Origin: Alphaproteobacteria bacterium
GTDB lineage: Bacteria; Pseudomonadota; Alphaproteobacteria; UBA6615
Assembly: GCA_965261975.1 (NCBI GenBank)
Contig: CBDHEC010000034.1
Location: 1 to 58,797 of the forward strand
Length of the DNA: 58,797 nt
Direction: 5' to 3'
Both the position numbers and the translations under genes were made by a program. This document shows, piece by piece, positions 45,662 to 54,517 of the stretch. Numbering within the stretch: position 1 is the stretch's first letter; each line of letters opens with the position of its first letter. The notes beneath the pieces were generated by a model, which did not search any database, was not told the DNA's origin, and worked only from the letters and a program-made list of their open reading frames with translations.

Positions 45662-47278
45662 ATGCCGGAAGACAGCTCCTTCGACTATGTGATCGTCGGC
45701 GCGGGCAGCGCCGGTTGCGTGCTGGCCAACCGGCTGACCGAGAGCGGCGCGCACAAGGTGTTGCTGCTCGAGGCGGGCGGGCGTGACCGCAATCCCTGGC
45801 TCCACATTCCGCTGGGTTACGGCAAGGTCTTCGACGACCCCAAGGTGAACTGGTACTACGCGACGGAGCCCGACCCGACCTGCAACGGGCGGCGGATCGT
45901 CCAGCCGCGCGGCAAGGTGCTGGGCGGCTCCAGCTCGATCAACGGGATGGTCTATATCCGCGGCAACGCCGCCGACTATGACCATTGGCGCCAGCTCGGC
46001 AACACGGGCTGGAGCTATGACGATGTGCTGCCCTATTTCCGTAAACTGGAAGACAACGCCCGTGGCGAGGATGAATATCACGGTACTGGCGGCCCCCAGG
46101 CCGTGTCCGAGCAGCGGGACTTCCACCCGCTCGGCCGCGCCCATCTGGCGGCGGCCGTCGAGGCGGGCTACCCCCTGAACCCCGACTTCAACGGCGCGAC
46201 CCAGGAGGGTTTCGGGCGCTACCAGGTGACCCAGCGGACCGGCCGGCGCTGGTCGACCGCGCGGGGGTATCTGCGCCCGGCGCGCAAGCGCGCGAACCTG
46301 ACGGTTGAGACCGGCGCCTTCGCCAACCGGGTGGTCTTCGACGGGCGCCGCGCTGTCGGGGTCGAGTACCAGGTCGGTGATGAGATCCGAACTGTGCGCC
46401 CGAGGCGCGAGGTCATCCTGGCGCTCGGCGCCTTCAACTCACCGCAGTTGCTGCAGCTCTCGGGAGTCGGCCCCGCGGCGTTGCTGCGCGAACACGGCAT
46501 CGACATGGTGGCGGACATACCCGGGGTGGGCGCGGACATGCAGGATCATTACCTGGTCCGCACGGTCTACCGCTGCAAGCAGCCGGTGACCCTGAACGAC
46601 GTGATGCAGAGCCGGGTAAAACAGGCCGGAACCCTGCTGCGTTATGCCCTGTTCCGCCGGGGCATGATGGCGATGGCCGCCGTGCCGACAGGCGGGTTCT
46701 TCCGCAGCGATCCGAGCCTCGCCACGCCGGACCTGCAGCATCACATCGTGCTGTATTCGAATGGCGGGGCCACGGGCAAACACGGCTCGACCCTGCATGA
46801 ATTCTCCGGCCTGTCGGCGACGGTTATCATGCTGCGGCCGGAAAGCCGCGGGGCGGTGGAGATCGGGTCCGCCGATCCGCGCGCGACCCCGTTGATCAAG
46901 AGCCGTTATCTCGAGGCCGAGCATGACCGGCTGGCGCTGATGCGCGGGGTGCGCGCGGTGCAAAAGATCATGCGCCAGCCGGCGCTGGAGCCGTTTGTCG
47001 GCGACGCGGTGGAGCCGGGCGAGGACGTGGTCAGCGATGACGACATGATCGAGTATCTGCGCAATTTCGGGAACACGGGCTTCCACCCGACCAGCACCTG
47101 TCGCATGGGTGTGGACGACAAGGCCGTGGTCGACCCGCGGCTGCGCGTCCATGGGCTCGAGGGGTTGCGGGTGGTGGATGCGTCGGTGATGCCGGCAGTC
47201 ACGTCGGGCAACACGAATGCGCCGACGATCATGATCGCGGAGAAGGCGTCGGACATGATCCTGGCGGATGCGCGGTAG
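45662..47278 (+). CDS. GMC family oxidoreductase (choline dehydrogenase-like)
   Basis: GAGSAG, RGKVLGGSSSING, PQLLQLSGVG, FHPTSTCRMG, GNTNAPTIMIAEK. Confidence 0.93.
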   Translation: MPEDSSFDYVIVGAGSAGCVLANRLTESGAHKVLLLEAGGRDRNPWLHIPLGYGKVFDDPKVNWYYATEPDPTCNGRRIVQPRGKVLGGSSSINGMVYIRGNAADYDHWRQLGNTGWSYDDVLPYFRKLEDNARGEDEYHGTGGPQAVSEQRDFHPLGRAHLAAAVEAGYPLNPDFNGATQEGFGRYQVTQRTGRRWSTARGYLRPARKRANLTVETGAFANRVVFDGRRAVGVEYQVGDEIRTVRPRREVILALGAFNSPQLLQLSGVGPAALLREHGIDMVADIPGVGADMQDHYLVRTVYRCKQPVTLNDVMQSRVKQAGTLLRYALFRRGMMAMAAVPTGGFFRSDPSLATPDLQHHIVLYSNGGATGKHGSTLHEFSGLSATVIMLRPESRGAVEIGSADPRATPLIKSRYLEAEHDRLALMRGVRAVQKIMRQPALEPFVGDAVEPGEDVVSDDDMIEYLRNFGNTGFHPTSTCRMGVDDKAVVDPRLRVHGLEGLRVVDASVMPAVTSGNTNAPTIMIAEKASDMILADAR

Positions 47279-47329: not shown

Positions 47330-47406
47330 CGGGAAGTAGCTCAGCCTGGTAGAGCACTACGTTCGGGACGTAGGGGCCGGAGGTTCGAATCCTCTCTTCC
47401 CGACCA
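47330..47406 (+). tRNA. tRNA-Pro (CGG)
   Basis: 77 nt; acceptor CGGGAAG/CTTCCCG + ACCA, D arm GCTC/GAGC, anticodon arm CTACG-TTCGGGA-CGTAG, T loop GTTCGAATC. Confidence 0.97.
47361..47406 (+). repeat. att core (tRNA-side copy)
   Basis: GTTCGGGACGTAGGGGCCGGAGGTTCGAATCCTCTCTTCCCGACCA, identical to 52792-52837. Confidence 0.95.
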
Positions 47407-47551
47407 TTTCTTCTGAAAACCTGATGTGTAGAACGGTCTATTCGCGCCATTCCGGTGCGGCGACCGGCGTCCAGTTACGCGCGAGCCCGAGATCGTCCAC
47501 GATTGCATTCGCCGCGATGTAGTCCGATAGGTTTTTCTGACAACTACCCTG

Positions 47552-47646
47552 CTTGTTCCACTTCCTCGGTTAATAACGACCGTTGGATTCTATGCCACCC
47601 GGAATTCAATGTGAATGCATCCGGCGTGGAACAAGATTGGAACAAG
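47552..47646. repeat. Putative integrase arm-type sites, left arm
   Basis: CTTGTTCCAC (47552-47561, inverted), GTGGAACAAG (47626-47635), TTGGAACAAG (47637-47646). Confidence 0.7.
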
Positions 47647-47795
47647 GTTGTCGTCCTCGGTGGATGAAGACCATTACTGCCCAGCAGGACCGACAAATCC
47701 GAGAGGCGGGGGCGGAAACTAGAACTCGGCTGTAAAACCCAAATCACTGCCCTCGAGCAACGACCCTCTGAGTAACGAGGATTGTCGTTTGGCAA

Positions 47796-49271
47796 TCAAT
47801 CCGAATCCGTACCGGTAAGCCCTCCTAGAGCTTCTAGGAACCTTTGGTGTCTTTTCCTGTATCCATCTGTTGCAATTTCTTCTTCCCCTTCTTCCTTACG
47901 ATCAATGACAACCTGCTTGGCTCCTGTGACCTGCTGGTAGGCACTCACCATGGTTTGTCGGAGTAGGTCTTCGTGCTGTCTGGCCACGATGTAGCTGTCA
48001 TGGATGGTCAAAACAGGAATATTCATTTGGGTGAACTGGTCGATGATGATGTCGGTGATACGTCCATCGGTGTTCATCAGCCGATTGCCAACCCCAGTAC
48101 CTAGCTGGTCACCGACGATGGGATGTCGTTGTGGTATGGCCTCAAGTAGACGGTCGAGTAGGTTGTCAGTCAGACGGATGTCCCCGGTTCGACCACCAAG
48201 CGACTTCCGGACCGCCTTGAAGCCGGATGCCCTGTCCTTGGCGTTCAACATGATCAGAAGAAAAACCTTGATGATGTCGGGGCCAATGAGTTCCCCGGTG
48301 TCACTATCGAAGACCTCGATGGTCTCGTAAGGCCTTCGATCGGAACCCGCCCAGTAATCGACACCCGCCTCGGCATAGAGAAGAACGGGATGAAGACCGG
48401 CATAGTCCAGCTCGACGGTTGGTTCATCGTTGATGTGTAGGCGTTGTCGTTCCTCCGACTTGAGGCTCATCCAGAAGCCGCGCCAGAAGCGGCCTCCCTG
48501 ATCCCAGTCGCTATTTGAGAAGATACGGGAGACACGCTTAGACGATTGAGAGACCGTGACCCTTCGATAGGTTTGCCGACCGCGCGGCCTGACCTTGTTG
48601 GGCGTCACGATCACTGCCGGGTGACCAAGCCCCGGTATATCGATGAAGGTGCGGTCCAGCAGCAGATTGTAGTCAATGAGCCGTTGGCGCATCACCCGGG
48701 TCTCATCGGTGTCGATGTAGTTGATGTCGTTCTTGTTGGCATCACGCAGGATGATGAACTCGGCATTCTGGTGCAGCGTGATCGACTGCCGTGCCGAGAG
48801 GGGCAGGGCTTCAAACATCGCCACCAGATCAAGGTCAGGTCTGATCCGCGTCAGGAGGAGTTCATGAGTATCGGGGTGGGGGCCGCCACGACGATCGTCG
48901 ATCAGCCCGGCGTCGGATAGTCCATTAATATAGGTGATAATCAGTCCGGTTATCTCTGCTGGATTGTACCGATTGGACCGACCGTCGATCTTGGCCCGAT
49001 AGGCCTTGGGCCGGTTCGACATCGGCAGAGCAACGAATGCCTCTGGGTCGTCCCACCAGCACCGGTAAAGGTTGGCAATCAGCAACGACAGTTGTCGTTT
49101 GCCCACACCACTTTTGCGACTGTCGAAATATTCCCCCCAGAGCTGATCGACCAATTCGATGAAAACCGGATCTTCGGCAACGACCTGCAAGTCCAGACGA
49201 CAAAACGGGGCGTCGTCAAAGGACTGGATCTCTTCGCCTCTATCAGCAAATCGTGGGCGGCGTGTTGGCAT
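47796..49271 (-). CDS. Divergent PolA / T7-RNAP superfamily polymerase-like protein
   Basis: DWDQGGRFW, VELDYAGLHP (motif A-like), IKVFLLIMLNA (motif B-like), NRLMNTDGRI...LTIHDSY (motif C-like); GAGAGG RBS. ORF is solid; function inferred. Confidence 0.65.
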   Translation of the reverse strand: MPTRRPRFADRGEEIQSFDDAPFCRLDLQVVAEDPVFIELVDQLWGEYFDSRKSGVGKRQLSLLIANLYRCWWDDPEAFVALPMSNRPKAYRAKIDGRSNRYNPAEITGLIITYINGLSDAGLIDDRRGGPHPDTHELLLTRIRPDLDLVAMFEALPLSARQSITLHQNAEFIILRDANKNDINYIDTDETRVMRQRLIDYNLLLDRTFIDIPGLGHPAVIVTPNKVRPRGRQTYRRVTVSQSSKRVSRIFSNSDWDQGGRFWRGFWMSLKSEERQRLHINDEPTVELDYAGLHPVLLYAEAGVDYWAGSDRRPYETIEVFDSDTGELIGPDIIKVFLLIMLNAKDRASGFKAVRKSLGGRTGDIRLTDNLLDRLLEAIPQRHPIVGDQLGTGVGNRLMNTDGRITDIIIDQFTQMNIPVLTIHDSYIVARQHEDLLRQTMVSAYQQVTGAKQVVIDRKEEGEEEIATDGYRKRHQRFLEALGGLTGTDSD

Positions 49272-49390
49272 TAGAACCTCTCGACGAAGATTCTAACGGA
49301 CACTCAGAGATTAAGACGCAATCAGGCTTGTGGGTAACCCGCATAGCTCTGAGTTCCTGCATCTATCAATTCCGTGCTGGTCACGGTCCG

Positions 49391-49816
49391 TCACGACACC
49401 AGTCTCTGGAGGTTGTCGTGCCCTTCGAACGGGCCAGCCCAGTAACCGTCAAGGAATAGCCTCTTTCCGTTGTCGTCGACTTCTTGGCTTTCCCGAATAT
49501 CGTCAAGGAACTGCTCGAACGACATACCGTCATATGCCGGGTACAGGCCCGTGCGTGCCGCCAGATGATGGAAGAAGCGCTGAATTATCTCTTTCGCAAG
49601 AAAGACGATATTGCCCTGCGAATCACGAACGAAGTCGCTCGTCTCAGCAGGCGACGACGGATCGACGACGGAAACATAAAAGTACTCCACGTTTGTCTGA
49701 CCCGAGCCATCAAAGGTGATCATCCCCTTCAGTCGGTTTGTCGGGTCTGTTCCGGTGAATGTGGTGGTGAAAAGCCCATCTTCAACGGGTGGATATGTCG
49801 TTACCTCTGTTGCCAT
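49391..49816 (-). CDS. Hypothetical protein (island)
   Basis: AAGGAG RBS before ATG 49816 (MATEVTTYPP...); 141 aa, acidic, family not recognised. Confidence 0.7.
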   Translation of the reverse strand: MATEVTTYPPVEDGLFTTTFTGTDPTNRLKGMITFDGSGQTNVEYFYVSVVDPSSPAETSDFVRDSQGNIVFLAKEIIQRFFHHLAARTGLYPAYDGMSFEQFLDDIRESQEVDDNGKRLFLDGYWAGPFEGHDNLQRLVS

Positions 49817-50240
49817 GCCGATACTCCTTCTGACCAATTTTACGATGAGGTCGGCATGTTCAGAAGGAGATCTAGGTACGTTATGATGGTCGCATTGCCA
49901 ACCATGCGGTCGGTGGGACGAAATCATACCTGCTGAGTGGCTGGAAGATGGCATGCCAGACGTTGACTAAATCCGGCAGCGGTTCATCTACTCTGTCTGC
50001 GGCAGGGTCGCCGAGAAGCAGGTGCGGGCACCAAAGTTGGGGATGTCCAACGAGAGTGGGTACCGGGGGACGTGACTTACAGCTTCACGACATGTCAAAG
50101 GATTGACGATAGAGGCTGAGTTGGATAGCCGGTCGGGTTATCGGGGGATTTGAACGTAGCGTACTATGTTTGTGCTGAAAGGGGTTGCGGTTCGTCTATT
50201 TAGGAGAATTTTTGTGCAAGGGTTTAAAATAAAAAAATTA

Positions 50241-50558
50241 TTAATATTTATTTTTTCTGCATTCCTTTGTCATTTTTCTCCTTTTCGCCTCTTTAATAAA
50301 TATTTCTTTTTCTAGAACCCATTCATGTGCAATATTTGTTGATGCAAGGCAGACTTGCTCATCGGAGTAATTTTTCATAAATTTCTGGTCGTCTCGCAAG
50401 GCCTCTTCAAGCGCATAACCGCCAAGTTGTTTGGCCCCCTCTACCAAAGAGGGAATCGGTATGCACCCTGATAACAACGCCATCAGAGTAAGCGTTAGGA
50501 TTATGAAAAAATCCTTACCGGCCAACAACTTACCGGCCAACAAAGGGGGTTCCCTCAT
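50241..50558 (-). CDS. Putative small lipoprotein (island)
   Basis: FFIILTLTLMALLSG|C lipobox, two further Cys (SDEQVC...EAKRRKMTKEC); start ATG 50558 or TTG 50525. Confidence 0.55.
   Translation of the reverse strand: MREPPLLAGKLLAGKDFFIILTLTLMALLSGCIPIPSLVEGAKQLGGYALEEALRDDQKFMKNYSDEQVCLASTNIAHEWVLEKEIFIKEAKRRKMTKECRKNKY
50514..50543 (+). repeat. 15-bp tandem duplication CTTACCGGCCAACAA x2
   Basis: Exact direct repeat at 50514-50528 and 50529-50543. Confidence 0.9.
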
Positions 50559-50907
50559 GAAAAAATTAACCTTTCTTCTCATCGTAGCCTTATCACTAGC
50601 CGCTTGCAGTAAGGGGTCAAGAGAGATAGTTCCAACATACGTGTCGCCAGCACAGTATTCGAACTATGATTGCGATCAGATCCGTCAGGAGATGGTGCGT
50701 ATCAATGGAATCGCTAATCAGATGGCGGGGAAGTTGGACGACAATAAAGAGACGGATAACGCAGTAACGGCAGCGGGCATTATTCTTTTCTGGCCTGCGC
50801 TTTTTTTCTTGGGTGGAACTTCTGACGAAGAAGCAGAATATGCTCGCTTGCGGGGTGAGTATAATGCCTTGGAGCAAGCTGCTGTTCAGAAGAAGTGTTC
50901 CTCTTAA
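50557..50907 (+). CDS. Small lipoprotein (island)
   Basis: AGGGGG RBS, MKKLTFLLIVALSLAA|C lipobox, YVSPAQYSNYDC, internal hydrophobic AAGIILFWPALFFLGG, C-terminal Cys. Confidence 0.85.
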   Translation: MKKLTFLLIVALSLAACSKGSREIVPTYVSPAQYSNYDCDQIRQEMVRINGIANQMAGKLDDNKETDNAVTAAGIILFWPALFFLGGTSDEEAEYARLRGEYNALEQAAVQKKCSS

Positions 50908-51075
50908 TTTGGGATTGTAAATGGGCCTCATCTGCCAGACGTACTGCGGAGAGGCCCACCAGTCTCTATAATTCTGAAAGTCCTTGAGGTTCTGGAAAGC
51001 GTTTTTCTGCTGAGCGGCTGGGGAAACTGCCCTGCATGAACGACAATAACCCTGTATCGATCAGGAGATTTGTCG

Positions 51076-51516
51076 ATGTCGCTAAACGAGAAACAAACAC
51101 GCTTTGCCCACGCCTATGTCGCTTGTGGCGGTAACGGCCGTGCCGCAGCCATACAGGCCGGGTACAGCCCCAGCAGCGCCGCCAAACGTGCCTGTGACCT
51201 GCTCAAGAATACTGACGTGCAGGTCATCGTTCAGGGGCACCGTGACGCCATTCTGACGGTGACCGAGGACTTCGATGTCGTTGCTGAACTGAAGGACTTG
51301 TATCGTCGTGCAATCGCGTCAGGTGCGTTGGCGGTCGCGCATAATTCGCTGGCAACTCTGGGCAGGCTCGAAAATTTGGAACCCGTCCGGCGTTTCGAGG
51401 TGAGAAATCTAGATCCCGAGGAAATGGATCGGCAGATCACCCACTATCTTGATGTGATTGGCACCGACCAAAAGGAAAGGCCCCCGGAGACAATGCCTCG
51501 CGGGAGCCTGAATTAG
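51076..51516 (+). CDS. Phage terminase small subunit-like protein
   Basis: LNEKQTRFAHAYV..GNGRAAAIQAGYS..SA..RACDLLKN.DV HTH signature of TerS; AGGAG RBS. Confidence 0.85.
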   Translation: MSLNEKQTRFAHAYVACGGNGRAAAIQAGYSPSSAAKRACDLLKNTDVQVIVQGHRDAILTVTEDFDVVAELKDLYRRAIASGALAVAHNSLATLGRLENLEPVRRFEVRNLDPEEMDRQITHYLDVIGTDQKERPPETMPRGSLN

Positions 51517-51689
51517 CTGTCATATCGCGCGGCCAAAGGAGAAAACCGCCATATTGTGACGGGGTTTTTCGACTGCGGCACTCACCGTCTAATCCGCATC
51601 CACCCACCCGCATCTGTGGCCCCGGTGGCAGGGTCATTATCGTTTAGCGTCTAAATCTAAAGACGGAATCGAGCATGAGTGTGACGCGG

Positions 51690-52664
51690 TCAGGCCAACT
51701 TCCGGGCAAGGTCCTCGGGTCTTAGTTGGACGTACCGCTGCAGCATTCTGAGGTCCTTGTGACCTGTGATCGCTGCTACCTCCATTACGCCGAGACCCTT
51801 CTCGAAGAACCGTGTTGTTGCTTCATGTCTGAGGTCATGGAAACGAAGGTCTGTGATGTCGGCCCTGCCGGTTGCTCTGTTCCACAGGCCCTTTAGTGCC
51901 TCGGGGTGGACCGGTATGACGACACCACTCAGGCTTCTTGGTAGCGCCTCGATGGTTTGTCGCGCCTTTGGCGACAGCGGCACGTCCCTGCTGTCACCAT
52001 TCTTGGTCTGGGGTAGATGGACGTAACTTTTGTTGAGCTGGACATGCTCCCAGCGAAGACCGAGCAGCTCACCTCTGCGCATAGCTGTTTCGATTGCGAG
52101 GATAACCAACGGCTGAAGATAGGGGTTCGATGATGCCTGACACGACATCATCAGCCGCCCTTCTTCGCCTTCCTCCAGCCGTCGGGTTCGACCCTTTGGC
52201 TGTGTCGGTTTCCGGAGGTTGGCTGCTGGATTACCGGGAAGGTTAAAGCCCCACTCCGACATCGCAATACGAATGGCGTGGCTGATGATCGAGAGGTCTC
52301 GGTTACAGGCGGATGCTCCAACCTGCCGCAGTCTTTCGTCCCGATACTGTGCGAGATGACCCGAGGTCAGCTTTGACAGCCAAATACTAGATAGCCATGA
52401 ACGACGAAGCCGATCGACGACATAGGCCTCGACATAAGCGGATCGCTTGGTCGGCGTGATTTCTTGGCCGTACCTTCTGAGAAGGTCACCAACTGTGCAG
52501 TCGTTGGTGATCAGATGGCCGAGATCAATCTGACGTTCCACCTCAGATGCCCATCGTCGGGCATCACCGGCGCGATCGAATGTCTTAGTCTGAAGAGGTG
52601 TACCCCGACGTCTTACTCGAGCGGTGTACCGACCGTTTCTTTTTGTAATTGATGCCAATTCCAT
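51690..52664 (-). CDS. int: Tyrosine recombinase / integrase
   Basis: ETAMRRGELL (R), TKNG (K), FHDLRH (HxxR), GHKD..ML.RY (H, Y); N-terminal arm-binding-like ASITKRNGRYTARVRR; AGGAG RBS. Confidence 0.95.
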   Translation of the reverse strand: MELASITKRNGRYTARVRRRGTPLQTKTFDRAGDARRWASEVERQIDLGHLITNDCTVGDLLRRYGQEITPTKRSAYVEAYVVDRLRRSWLSSIWLSKLTSGHLAQYRDERLRQVGASACNRDLSIISHAIRIAMSEWGFNLPGNPAANLRKPTQPKGRTRRLEEGEEGRLMMSCQASSNPYLQPLVILAIETAMRRGELLGLRWEHVQLNKSYVHLPQTKNGDSRDVPLSPKARQTIEALPRSLSGVVIPVHPEALKGLWNRATGRADITDLRFHDLRHEATTRFFEKGLGVMEVAAITGHKDLRMLQRYVQLRPEDLARKLA

Positions 52665-52669
52665 CTCCT

Positions 52670-52690
52670 GTGGTACAGGAGTGGAACAAG
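52670..52690 (+). repeat. Putative integrase arm-type sites, right arm
   Basis: GTGGTACAGG (52670-52679) and GTGGAACAAG (52681-52690); same 11-bp period as the left-arm pair. Confidence 0.7.
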
Positions 52691-52791
52691 ACGAGGCCTA
52701 GGAGTTTTCCTTATCTCTTCACCCTCGGTAGAAAACTGAAAATAAACAGTTTTCTTCAGGGTAAGACGATCTTTTGTCAGACACACTTAAG

Positions 52792-52837
52792 GTTCGGGAC
52801 GTAGGGGCCGGAGGTTCGAATCCTCTCTTCCCGACCA
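52792..52837 (+). repeat. att core (integrase-side copy; 3' part of tRNA-Pro)
   Basis: 46-bp exact copy of 47361-47406, starting at the anticodon loop; no 5' tRNA half. Confidence 0.95.
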
Positions 52838-52882
52838 ATTTTCTTCACATGATCAATGATCGTCGATGGCCGTTCGCCGCGC

Positions 52883-54517
52883 CTAGAGGCGCGCCGCCGG
52901 CGGCGGGGCGTTGCCGAGGATCATGTCCGCGCCTTTCTCGGCGATCATCATGGTGGCCGCGTTGGTGTTGGCCGAGGGCATGGTCGGCATGACCGAGGCG
53001 TCGACCACGCGCAGCCCCTCGAGGCCGTGGACCTTGAGTTCGTCGCTGACCACATTGTCGCGGTCGGCCGCACCCATGCGGCAGGTGCCGACCAGGTGGA
53101 ACACGGTGGTGCCGTAGCGGCGCGCGAAGTCGAGCAGCTCGTCGTCGGTCTGGAGGTCGGCGCCGGGGACGATCTCGTGCTCGTAATACTGCGCGAGCTC
53201 GGGCGCGGTTAGCAGTTGCCGGTCGAGGCGCAGGCCGGCCACGGTGACCTGGCGGTCGGTTTCGTGATCGAGATAGTTGGGCTGGATGATCGGCTTGTCG
53301 GCCATGTCCGCCGAGCGTGCGCGGATGAAGCCCCGGCTGAGGGGGCGGAGCGCGAAGGTGGCGGCCGTCATGCCCGGCTCGTCCTCGAGCTTCGCGATCT
53401 TCCCCGCTTCGTAGGTGGCCGGGGTGAAGATCAGCTGCATGTCGGGCTGTTCCATGGCCGGGTGGGACTTCCAGAACACGAAGACCTGGCTGGGTGACAT
53501 GGCCAGCAGTCCCTTGCGGCGAAGGGCGTAATTCGCGACCTCCTTCACCAGGGACAGGCCGCGGGCGCGCTCGTTGATGGTGCGCGCGTTCTTCACCCGG
53601 GCGGTCATGCGGGCCAGATAATGGTCCGACAGGTTCTCGCCGACGCCGGGCAGGTCGTGGACGACCTCGACCCCGAGATCCTTTAGCAACGCCGCCGGGC
53701 CGACGCCGGAGATCTGGAGTAGTTGGGGCGAGCCGACCGAGCCGCTGGCGAGGATGACCTCGCGCCGCGCGCGGATTTCGATCTCGCGGCCGCCTTTCCT
53801 GTAGCGGATGCCGACGGCGCGCTTGCCCTCGAACAATATACGCCGGGTGTGGGCGTCGGTGCGGATGTCGAGGTTGGGGCGGTGGCGCACGGGATGCAGG
53901 AAGGCGCGGTAGGCGCTGACCCGGCGGCCCTTCTCGATGACCCGCTGGAAGTAACCGACCCCGGCCTGGGTGGCGCCGTTGTAATCGTCGTTGCGGGGAA
54001 TGCCGATGCCCACCGCGCCGTCGATGAAGGCCTCGCAGATGGGTTCGGGCCCATCGATGTCGGTGACCGGGAGTTCGCCGTCCCGGCCATGGAATTCCGT
54101 ATCGTCTCCGTTTTCTTCCGGGCCGCCGATGCGGCGCTCGCTGCGCCTGAAATAGGGCAGGATGTCGGCATAGCCCCAGCCGCGGTTACCCTCCTGTGCC
54201 CAGCTGTCATAGTCCATCCGCTGGCCGCGGTTGTAGATATGGCCGTTGATCGAGCTGGAGCCGCCCAGCGTCTTGCCGCGCGGCACATAGACCGGCCGCC
54301 CGGCCGTGCCTTCGCTGGGTTCGGACTCGAACAGCCAGTTGATCTTCGGGTTGGCCAGGGTGCGGGTGAAGCCGGCCGGAATATGGATCCACGGGTTGCG
54401 GTCGGGCGGCCCGGCGTCGAGCACGCACACGGTTGCGTCCCCCGCCGAGAGCCGGTTGGCGAGGATGGAGCCGGCGGAACCGGCCCCGACGATGATGTAG
54501 TCGAATTCATCCGCCAT
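52883..54517 (-). CDS. GMC family oxidoreductase
   Basis: GAGSAG, RGKTLGGSSSING, PQLLQISGVG, FHLVGTCRMG, ANTNAATMMIAEK. Confidence 0.93.
   Translation of the reverse strand: MADEFDYIIVGAGSAGSILANRLSAGDATVCVLDAGPPDRNPWIHIPAGFTRTLANPKINWLFESEPSEGTAGRPVYVPRGKTLGGSSSINGHIYNRGQRMDYDSWAQEGNRGWGYADILPYFRRSERRIGGPEENGDDTEFHGRDGELPVTDIDGPEPICEAFIDGAVGIGIPRNDDYNGATQAGVGYFQRVIEKGRRVSAYRAFLHPVRHRPNLDIRTDAHTRRILFEGKRAVGIRYRKGGREIEIRARREVILASGSVGSPQLLQISGVGPAALLKDLGVEVVHDLPGVGENLSDHYLARMTARVKNARTINERARGLSLVKEVANYALRRKGLLAMSPSQVFVFWKSHPAMEQPDMQLIFTPATYEAGKIAKLEDEPGMTAATFALRPLSRGFIRARSADMADKPIIQPNYLDHETDRQVTVAGLRLDRQLLTAPELAQYYEHEIVPGADLQTDDELLDFARRYGTTVFHLVGTCRMGAADRDNVVSDELKVHGLEGLRVVDASVMPTMPSANTNAATMMIAEKGADMILGNAPPPAARL

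Follow-up and report, generated by a model that had tools for sequence, protein, structure and literature searches.

The window analysed here, the 58,797-nt contig CBDHEC010000034.1 of an alphaproteobacterium of the UBA6615 lineage (assembly GCA_965261975.1), contains a 5,431-bp insert of low GC content 3′ of its tRNA-Pro(CGG) gene, with the recombination event placed within a 46-bp core. This island is best explained as an intact representative of a family of very small integrative elements that is restricted to one lineage. Constant in the family are a tyrosine integrase, a phage-type terminase small subunit (TerS) and conserved ends; added in variable form are a polymerase module, usually preceded by a 141-residue orphan protein, and between one and three cargo genes encoding envelope or secreted proteins. 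Three points are firmly shown: the segment integrates site-specifically and belongs to a family that recurs and moves horizontally; the integrase and a genuine TerS are its constant genes and are under purifying selection; and the family-A-like polymerase is often present but can be replaced or lost, while the cargo turns over. With a confidence a little better than even, we take the element to be a phage satellite of the TerS type, of the kind known from marine tycheposons and VEIMEs, with only three core genes left.

TerS matched the Pfam family Terminase_2 (PF03592) with 48.1 bits against a cut-off of 26.1 (E 2.4e-12), the match being confined to the N-terminal helix-turn-helix (HTH), where residues 5–63 align with profile positions 1–58 of 141. 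A tblastn search matched TerS residues 5–136 to 88 phage records, among them the annotated TerS of Staphylococcus phage 80alpha (32% identity, E 3e-7); the other 87 come from phages of Staphylococcus, Streptococcus and Lactobacillus. The match spanned 80% or more of the protein in 55 of these records, and 89% of its length was aligned with the 80alpha type. A profile of 14 homologues matched the SF6-type small-terminase structures 3zqp, 2cmp and 4zc3. Because residues 5–136 align with the 80alpha TerS and the profile matches SF6-type structures, the protein is a full-length small terminase of the SPP1/SF6/80alpha, headful (pac) type, and the Terminase_2 score and these two lines of comparison together upheld the assignment made in the preliminary description of this DNA. 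Mean column identity was 82% across 14 TerS sequences, with a ratio of nonsynonymous to synonymous substitution rates (dN/dS) of 0.08–0.22. The protein database held 155 homologues, and among the 120 matches listed all were at least 70% identical, mostly on short metagenome contigs.

This TerS is the sole PF03592 gene of the genome, and no terminase large subunit (TerL) was found beside it or elsewhere in the island by Pfam and PHROGs searches. The genome's only TerL, of 672 residues (phrog_38, E 6e-98), lies on another contig (C40 1105–10353, L202), in an element that begins at the contig end and has its own, different TerS of 83 residues (phrog_891), with a tyrosine integrase ∼6 kb further on.

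Named matches in Pfam, PHROGs and NCBIfam were restricted to TerS and the integrase. The latter had been described as intact, in agreement with its Pfam match and with a translation that contains all of the catalytic residues (R, K, HxxR, H and Y); its dN/dS was 0.08–0.17 against close and distant copies. The remainder of the gene inventory drawn up beforehand, namely one orphan open reading frame (ORF) and two lipoproteins recognisable by the lipoboxes LLSGC and LAAC, was likewise borne out by the ORF list, as was its negative part: searches of the six ORFs against the same three collections, and of 12 further small island ORFs against Pfam, revealed no domain of a capsid, TerL, primase/helicase, AlpA, Xis or repressor. 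Packaging in helper heads is the best explanation for this gene content because TerS is kept intact beside the integrase, without TerL or virion genes, in elements of 2.6–9.9 kb.

The boundaries of the island are sharply defined. The tRNA-Pro(CGG) gene is the only tRNA gene found in the window by ARAGORN, and the GC fraction falls from ∼0.67 in both flanks to 0.50–0.58 within the island, with a trough of 0.385–0.43 at 50000–50600; the lowest GC of the island coincides with the lipoprotein gene at 50241–50582. A repeat search returned a 49-nt direct repeat with one mismatch (47361–47409 and 52792–52840), of which the first 46 nt are exact. In a second genome of the same genus, G010, the tRNA directly abuts the right flank of the window, and in a four-way alignment G010 matches attL up to the core and attR beyond it, placing the crossover within the 46-bp core. 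The insertion is genuine, since the G010 tRNA runs straight into the right flank and the match switches inside the core; the exact 46-bp att repeats noted earlier at tRNA-Pro thus proved real both by repeat search and by a precise empty site. Orthologues of the right-flank gene are present in 11 of the 11 other genomes of the genus, and G003 retains at the window's own locus a remnant consisting of attR and a TerS pseudogene, the integrase gene having been deleted. An alternative in which integration proceeds in two orientations through a palindromic TTCGAA overlap in the T-loop was rejected, as it would destroy the acceptor arm of the tRNA and leave no direct repeats.

In four genomes of the genus (G007, G005, G009 and G011) a gene for a 529-residue FAD oxidoreductase lies between tRNA-Pro and the same right flank. 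A stretch next to attL in the island (Table 1) has 80–94% identity to the tRNA-proximal DNA of these genomes and is common to the metagenome copies L081, L082 and L086. The simplest reading is that an ancestor of the element excised imprecisely from a genome of the G007 type, capturing this host DNA, and then re-integrated. In G011, a cassette of 96- and 107-residue ORFs lies between tRNA-Pro and the oxidoreductase gene (L193 4102–4722); judged from layout alone, it may be a toxin-antitoxin pair. The island of the window is itself flanked by two convergent paralogous GMC-type oxidoreductase genes (45662–47278 and 52883–54517), which create long imperfect inverted repeats (I1–I5, 72–80% complementary) and have many further paralogues in the genome.

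Recurrence of the gene combination had been set beforehand as the test of a satellite, and it was observed. Integrase and TerS occur together in 10 of the 46 genomes of the order, own genome counted, all in one family and two genera, and integrase, TerS and polymerase together at L087, L089, L229, L232 and L236, the polymerases of the last three belonging to the same family as that of the window but being only 28–30% identical to it; in an even sample of the class, TerS was present in 2 of 401 genomes, both in that same family. Elements of the family occupy tRNA-Pro, tRNA-Val and tRNA-Ala. Thirteen TerS-carrying genome stretches were compared, of which those beyond L228, L229, L232 and L234–L236 (Table 1) hold TerS fragments. 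The seven elements compared are 2.6–9.9 kb long with 50–53% GC, and no fragments of virion, lysis or TerL genes were found in them. The shortest, L228, shares with the island an integrase of 96% and a TerS of 92% amino acid identity (93% nucleotide identity over the integrase gene) and keeps the non-coding end segment, but has no polymerase. Its flanking genes are far more diverged than its integrase–TerS copy, and it may be a non-autonomous derivative.

Two further features of the genome copies were noted. In L234–L236, which have 82% nucleotide identity to the window over integrase and TerS, the tRNA-Pro core stands in the opposite orientation to the gene block, a full tRNA copy is present at both ends, and homology with the window ends at the TGGAACAAG sites. 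One genome, G044 (L231, L234, L235, L237 and L238), has 10 TerS matches at no fewer than five places, mostly fragments or frameshifted, and both repeated insertion and decay in place appear common.

Nine close relatives were recovered from metagenomes, and parts of the element were found in runs from estuaries, salt marsh and coastal water. Both lipoprotein genes are missing from these relatives. At L087 and L089, TerS and the polymerase are divergent and adjacent, without the orphan and lipoproteins, and a gene for an outer-membrane beta-barrel lies between integrase and TerS. L081, L082, L086 and L088 carry between polymerase and tRNA a gene for a 334-residue secreted dienelactone-hydrolase-like protein (alpha/beta hydrolase), followed by a duplicate of the last ∼64 polymerase codons (in L081, within 1437–2932), which looks like the scar of cargo gain through recombination between related elements. 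Contigs of three metagenome runs (X1, X2 and X4) cover integrase, TerS and polymerase but not 50292–51002. Integrase, TerS and polymerase are therefore taken as the core and the cargo as variable, since the metagenome relatives keep the former and swap the latter. In runs X1 and X4, the summed contig depth was 35–120 over the integrase and attR (51477–52898) and 2–32 over the polymerase, which would fit an integrase end that occurs in more elements or organisms than the polymerase does, although contig depths cannot rank genes.

Table 1. Features of the island in the window, and elements of its family in related genomes.
Feature	Position or locus	Strand	Basis or content
tRNA-Pro(CGG), integration target, intact after insertion	47330–47406	+	ARAGORN; same tRNA at the G010 empty site
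attL core, 46 bp, identical to the tRNA 3′ end	47361–47406	+	exact repeat of 52792–52837
Captured host DNA: last 27 codons and spacer of the 529-residue FAD oxidoreductase gene	47415–47526	.	between the att repeats, adjoining attL
Conserved non-coding end segment with three TGGAACAAG 9-mers (47552−, 47627+, 47638+)	47549–47647	.	putative integrase arm sites
Minimal family-A-like (TV-Pol-like) polymerase, 491 residues, presumed replicase/primase-polymerase	47796–49271	−	fold and motifs
Orphan protein, 141 residues, directly upstream of the polymerase gene on the same strand	49391–49816	−	ORF 49391–49954, 187 residues, start probably M47
Cargo: small lipoprotein, lipobox LLSGC, start codon uncertain	50241–50582	−	translation
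Cargo: 116-residue lipoprotein (MKKLTFLLIVALSLAAC...), lipobox LAAC	50557–50907	+	ORF 50431–50907, start probably 50557
Terminase small subunit (TerS), 146 residues from ATG	51076–51516 (ORF 51070–51516)	+	Pfam Terminase_2
Tyrosine integrase (int), 324 residues, intact	51690–52664	−	PF00589, E 1.2e-26; phrog_1, E 2e-57
Fourth TGGAACAAG site, between int start and attR	52682–52690	+	motif search
attR core, 46-bp copy of the tRNA 3′ end	52792–52837	+	exact repeat; empty-site alignment
Element at tRNA-Pro (G041, other genus)	L228, 6296–8876		exact 46-bp repeats 2.58 kb apart; intact int and TerS only
Element at tRNA-Val	L229		frameshifted int, TerS, orphan fragment, polymerase (29%)
Element at tRNA-Ala	L232		frameshifted int, TerS, polymerase (28%)
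Element at tRNA-Pro	L236		frameshifted int, broken TerS, orphan (40% by tblastn, 36% in alignment A5), polymerase (30%)
Element at tRNA-Pro	L234		int, frameshifted TerS, orphan, up to contig end
Element at tRNA-Pro	L235		int, broken TerS; only a scrap of polymerase

The 491-residue protein had been described as PolA/T7-like; the family-A fold and the catalytic motifs sustain this likeness, and what it lacks is support from Pfam or NCBIfam, where no family was matched, PF00476 and the named PolA models included. The protein matched phrog_4756, of unknown function (E 5e-43), and a phmmer search of PDB sequences returned nothing relevant. Its AlphaFold2 (AF2) model had a mean predicted local distance difference test score (pLDDT) of 87.7 and a predicted template modelling score of 0.88, and the 22 Foldseek matches at E ≤ 0.001 were family-A DNA polymerases (apicoplast Pol, Bst, Taq and Klenow) and one mitochondrial RNA polymerase. 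Residues 101–463 of the model superimposed with VIA-align on the apicoplast enzyme apPol (9qsc_A) with a Z score of 12.0 and a root mean squared deviation of 3.9 Å over 257 aligned residues, and Z scores of 9–11 were obtained with T7 DNA polymerase, Pol theta, Pol nu and mitochondrial RNA polymerase. The similarity to family-A polymerases is structural only, at 9–14% identity. Residues R249, F251, G260, R261, R275, E287, D289, Y315, K335, G395, H424 and D425 are invariant in the polymerase alignment and map to an ELDYxGLH strand, an RxxxK..LN helix and an IHDS strand; R249 and R261 sit on the hairpin strands 247–251 and 259–264, D289 in ELDYxGLH, and H424-D425 in HDS. The dN/dS of the gene was 0.11–0.12, with a value of 0.40 at saturation in the comparison with L232.

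The polymerase belongs to a very large family. A word-based search gave 22 relatives, and a profile of 20 of them recovered 11,981 cluster representatives at E ≤ 1e-3 (clusters at 50% identity), 5,612 of them at E ≤ 1e-30. Members were found in 240 phage records, from large phages of Vibrio, Aeromonas, Rheinheimera and similar hosts, the listed matches being annotated as hypothetical, and in 3 plasmid or chromid records. None of 28 whole short contigs carrying the polymerase had a terminal overlap of 15–200 nt indicative of a circular form. The same profile found nothing in the record of Microcystis phage Ma-LMM01, a named carrier of TV-Pol, an empty answer that shows nothing. A genome scan for distant relatives yielded 511, of which 79 loci were kept, mostly from marine Alphaproteobacteria and with 28–39% identity, and their 905 neighbouring ORFs were clustered. 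A tyrosine-integrase cluster is present at 38 of these 79 loci and a resolvase at 6, and the other cargo is heterogeneous (caspase-like, Sel1, HNH-HIT, M10 protease, cyclases and BLUF).

These neighbourhoods fit the TV-Pol elements as set out in PMC2579912. TV-Pols are minimal family-A polymerases of mobile elements and predicted primase-polymerases (PMC2579912). They share with the island protein the minimal family-A form without exonuclease domains, the thumb, an arginine of a beta-hairpin, two palm aspartates and a fingers lysine, and, like the present family, they occur in small mobile elements with the polymerase beside a lambda-type integrase or a resolvase (PMC2579912). On the other hand, no D5-type helicase lies near the island polymerase, and TerS is not reported in the TV-Pol neighbourhoods of the text available (PMC2579912), whereas the island polymerase is accompanied by one. 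A full-text literature search found no publication joining TV-Pols with TerS or satellites; the VEIME supplement, which lies outside that search, may bear on the point. CCPol of SCCmec, a TV-Pol member, has polymerase activity and can prime de novo when joined by a small partner, MP, which is encoded alongside it in an operon and is needed for this priming (PMC7581432).

As a guess, the 141-residue orphan might be an MP-like partner of the polymerase. Homologues with 36–37% identity lie upstream of the polymerase in L234 and L236, L229 retains a fragment, and a homologue search gave a single metagenome cluster, of 141 residues and 96% identity. The orphan matched no family in Pfam or PHROGs and gave no usable ESM Atlas match, and its AF2 model (pLDDT 47.3) provided no usable fold. 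A complex prediction with the polymerase scored 0.00 with controls not run and has no bearing on binding. Of the two cargo proteins, the 116-residue lipoprotein matched phrog_13472, of unknown function (E 1.7e-6); PADLOC defence models gave no match in eight proteins, the six of the island and two cargo proteins of relatives.

The ends of the island are conserved along with its constant genes. Of the five exact copies of TGGAACAAG in the window, four lie at the island ends; with one mismatch or fewer allowed, 18 matches were found against 6.8 ± 2.7 in shuffled sequences. In L232, L235 and L236 the end segment is 73–76% conserved and its sites are laid out alike. In these and in L228 the layout comprises one site just upstream of the integrase gene and, at the far end, a tandem pair together with a single inverted site, and it is kept even at a different tRNA. 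The site upstream of the integrase gene is also found in L228, L229 and L232 and, with one mismatch, in L234–L236. The TGGAACAAG sites are putative integrase arm sites, and the end segment may also serve as a pac site or origin.

The published systems closest to the island in gene content are marine. In VEIME module 6, a tyrosine integrase is present in 94.9% of members, TerS in 52.3% and a DNA polymerase (COG0749) in 40% (PMC9618062), and the island matches this suite of integrase, TerS and polymerase, by gene content only. VEIMEs are small elements packaged as concatemers in tailed-phage particles, with hosts including Pelagibacter and other Alphaproteobacteria (PMC9618062). They are defined by their presence in virions (PMC9618062), whereas the island has been seen in genomes and in contigs of bulk runs; the module 6 members listed are 11–14 kb with 40–49% GC (PMC9618062), and their polymerase is recognisable as COG0749, whereas that of the island matches no Pfam or NCBIfam model. 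PICI-like tycheposons are marine elements that integrate at tRNA 3′ ends by a tyrosine recombinase, leaving a partial tRNA repeat (10.1101/2020.12.28.424599); they have a replication module (polymerases, primases and helicases) and a terS or capsid gene, exchange modules and are found in viral fractions (10.1101/2020.12.28.424599). As judged from this description, the island has the same layout of tRNA 3′-end repeat, tyrosine recombinase, replication gene and terS. It differs in size, at 5.4 kb against 10–20 kb for tycheposons, which are mainly from Prochlorococcus (10.1101/2020.12.28.424599), and in that no excisionase or regulator was recognised; moreover, terS-type tycheposons had never been seen with extra cargo according to the text available (10.1101/2020.12.28.424599), whereas the island family combines the two.

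Better-known satellites resemble the island less closely. PICMI is also marine, with ∼6 kb, six genes and no capsid-remodelling genes (PMC10803314), and its concatemer fills a helper-sized head, its helper being virulent and its small cargo region fast-changing (PMC10803314). However, its core of integrase, alpA and primase (DUF3987/DUF5906) lies next to fis and has no terS in the description available (PMC10803314); the island, with terS, a family-A-like polymerase, a tRNA target and no alpA, shares only the integrase and so is not a PICMI. SaPIs and other PICIs likewise have an integrase and their own TerS, which redirects the packaging of a pac-type helper, and no virion or lysis genes (PMC10085698), and the island TerS belongs to the same family as that of 80alpha, a SaPI/PICI helper phage. 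Under the SatelliteFinder definition the island is nevertheless not a PICI, because it has only two of the five core components, the integrase and a small terminase without tail, holin or portal genes (PMC10085698); Pfam, PHROG and NCBIfam searches found no alpA/merR/stl regulator, primase-replicase homologue or capsid-morphogenesis gene, the primase-replicase being replaced by a non-homologous polymerase of family-A-like type, and its length is about one-third that of a PICI. Pipolins share direct-repeat flanks, a primer-independent DNA polymerase, recombinases and exchangeable cargo (PMC11551731), but their polymerase, piPolB, is of family B, and they are larger, carry defence cargo and, in the text available, are not known to carry terS (PMC11551731). 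Compared with published satellites, then, the island stands out by its smaller size, the lack of a recognisable regulator, an unannotated minimal polymerase and a new host lineage. The preliminary description had presented it as a candidate new minimal satellite with a single polymerase in place of the usual pri/rep module: anatomy and recurrence agree with a minimal satellite, but the polymerase is not constant, as the 2.6-kb integrase–TerS copy illustrates, and "new" was an overstatement, given that tycheposons and VEIME module 6 have already been published.

If the element is a satellite, its cycle can be envisaged as follows. The integrase inserts the circular element into the 3′ end of tRNA-Pro(CGG), a step that the precise empty site demonstrates. 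Infection by a headful (pac-type) helper would then bring about excision, through a route with no recognised excisionase or sensor, and the polymerase, acting as a primase-polymerase on the precedent of TV-Pol and CCPol-MP, would copy the circle into concatemers. The element's own TerS would bind a pac site on the element and recruit the helper's large terminase, so that multimers of the 5.4-kb unit would fill helper-sized heads, as in PICMI and VEIMEs. After injection, the element would re-integrate. A more far-reaching version, which is possible but which we offer tentatively, is that the family constitutes the smallest class of TerS-type satellites, with a ∼4-kb core of integrase, TerS and primer-independent polymerase and 2.6-kb integrase–TerS derivatives that use relatives or the helper for replication. 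Such elements would travel as concatemers in virulent pac-type phages of marine alphaproteobacteria, shuttling single genes for outer-membrane proteins, lipoproteins and secreted enzymes that alter the surface seen by the helper, and would give the TV-Pol-like family (∼12,000 clusters) its first concrete role.

Several observations weigh against a satellite. Every step after integration, namely excision, replication and packaging, is inferred. In a source-like run, the contig corresponding to the island (47377–52837), which breaks at the att repeats, had a depth of 6.28, the flanks having 8.59 and 6.64; no joint of attB, attP or a circle was seen, although only contigs were searched, in which rare forms would be lost. 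No helper phage was found by IMG/VR searches with TerS or by capsid and portal searches of the own genome: as a single query TerS recovered nothing from IMG/VR, and as an alignment it recovered 309 distant relatives, none close, the nearest with at most 53% identity over the N-terminal 47–59 residues or 26–29% over most of the length, and no PF05065 capsid or PF04860 portal gene was present in the 94.6%-complete genome. The six ORFs and 12 small ORFs (at least 40 residues) include no AlpA-, Stl-, MerR- or Xis-like gene. The window polymerase has proline in place of the arginine of the fingers RxxxK consensus of its family, as do two of its three closest relatives, the other having threonine. 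The polymerase is missing from some copies (L228 and L235), and self-replication is therefore not obligatory; in related genomes, frameshifts, stops or fragmentation have disrupted many copies, so that decay in place is common. TerS was found by BLASTP at none of the 79 distant polymerase loci, and is therefore no general partner of the polymerase; Terminase_2 likewise gave no match in the 150 small neighbouring ORFs scanned (L002–L060) of 200 listed. Finally, the link to VEIME module 6 is one of gene content only.

Some of these observations fit the main rival, a phage-independent, self-replicating integrative element of the TV-Pol-element or pipolin kind, which we judge unlikely. Here the integrase would move the element and the polymerase would replicate the excised circle; the TerS-like protein would have been re-used as a DNA-binding accessory, for example a recombination directionality factor or origin-binding protein, and transfer would occur by vesicles, transformation or an unknown route. 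The frequent pairing of integrase and polymerase family elsewhere (38 of 79 loci, with TerS at none) accords with this, as do the lack of a recognisable excisionase, the invariable position of TerS adjoining and convergent with the integrase gene, and the report, in the portion of the source available, that phage fractions yielded no tycheposons with cargo (10.1101/2020.12.28.424599). Against it, the protein is more than a small HTH, since the alignment with a proven packaging TerS extends beyond the HTH over 89% of the length, and TerS is strongly conserved (82% mean column identity across the 14 sequences). Moreover, integrase and TerS are intact where the polymerase is lost, as in L228, which would be hard to explain were replication the core function.

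More doubtful still is a fixed cargo island, a formerly mobile element that has kept its genes but has lost excision and transfer in this genome. The chromosome-like depth, the want of junction contigs, the many relatives decayed in place and the lack of a recognised regulator would all be expected of such an island, but none of its three core ORFs is disrupted, the two att cores agree at all 46 bp, dN/dS is 0.08–0.22 against close and distant copies, and a near-identical copy exists in another genus. It is highly improbable that TerS packages from the integrated element, as in lateral transduction, or hijacks a gene transfer agent, with flanking host genes moved too. The polymerase-less integrase–TerS copies and the host flank DNA captured within the element would suit such a process; however, the captured flank is equally explained by imprecise excision, and the genome has no capsid (PF05065) or portal (PF04860) gene of the RcGTA type, both of which searches did match the Caulobacter control genome. 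A decayed prophage that retained int and terS by chance can be rejected with hardly any reservation, despite its phage-type genes and the broken copies in relatives: as far as sequence can show, it is refuted by a compact architecture that recurs at several tRNAs with exact att repeats, by intact genes under selection, and by the absence of any virion, lysis or TerL fragment in the seven elements of 2.6–9.9 kb.

The family offers a natural deletion series, from 2.6 kb with integrase and TerS, through ∼4–5 kb with integrase, TerS and polymerase, to 5.4–9.9 kb with cargo, and this series, together with the clean empty site in the same genus, makes the minimum that a satellite needs directly testable. 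If the element is not packaged, it amounts to a small genomic island of the ordinary sort, distinguished by an unusual pair of genes. If it is packaged, it would push the known size and gene count of satellites down to an integrase, TerS and one polymerase, with no recognisable sensor or regulator, and would tie a very large polymerase family without a Pfam or NCBIfam model to a testable role. The cargo of the family, comprising lipoproteins, an outer-membrane beta-barrel and a secreted hydrolase, suggests that cell-surface traits are moved between marine bacteria.

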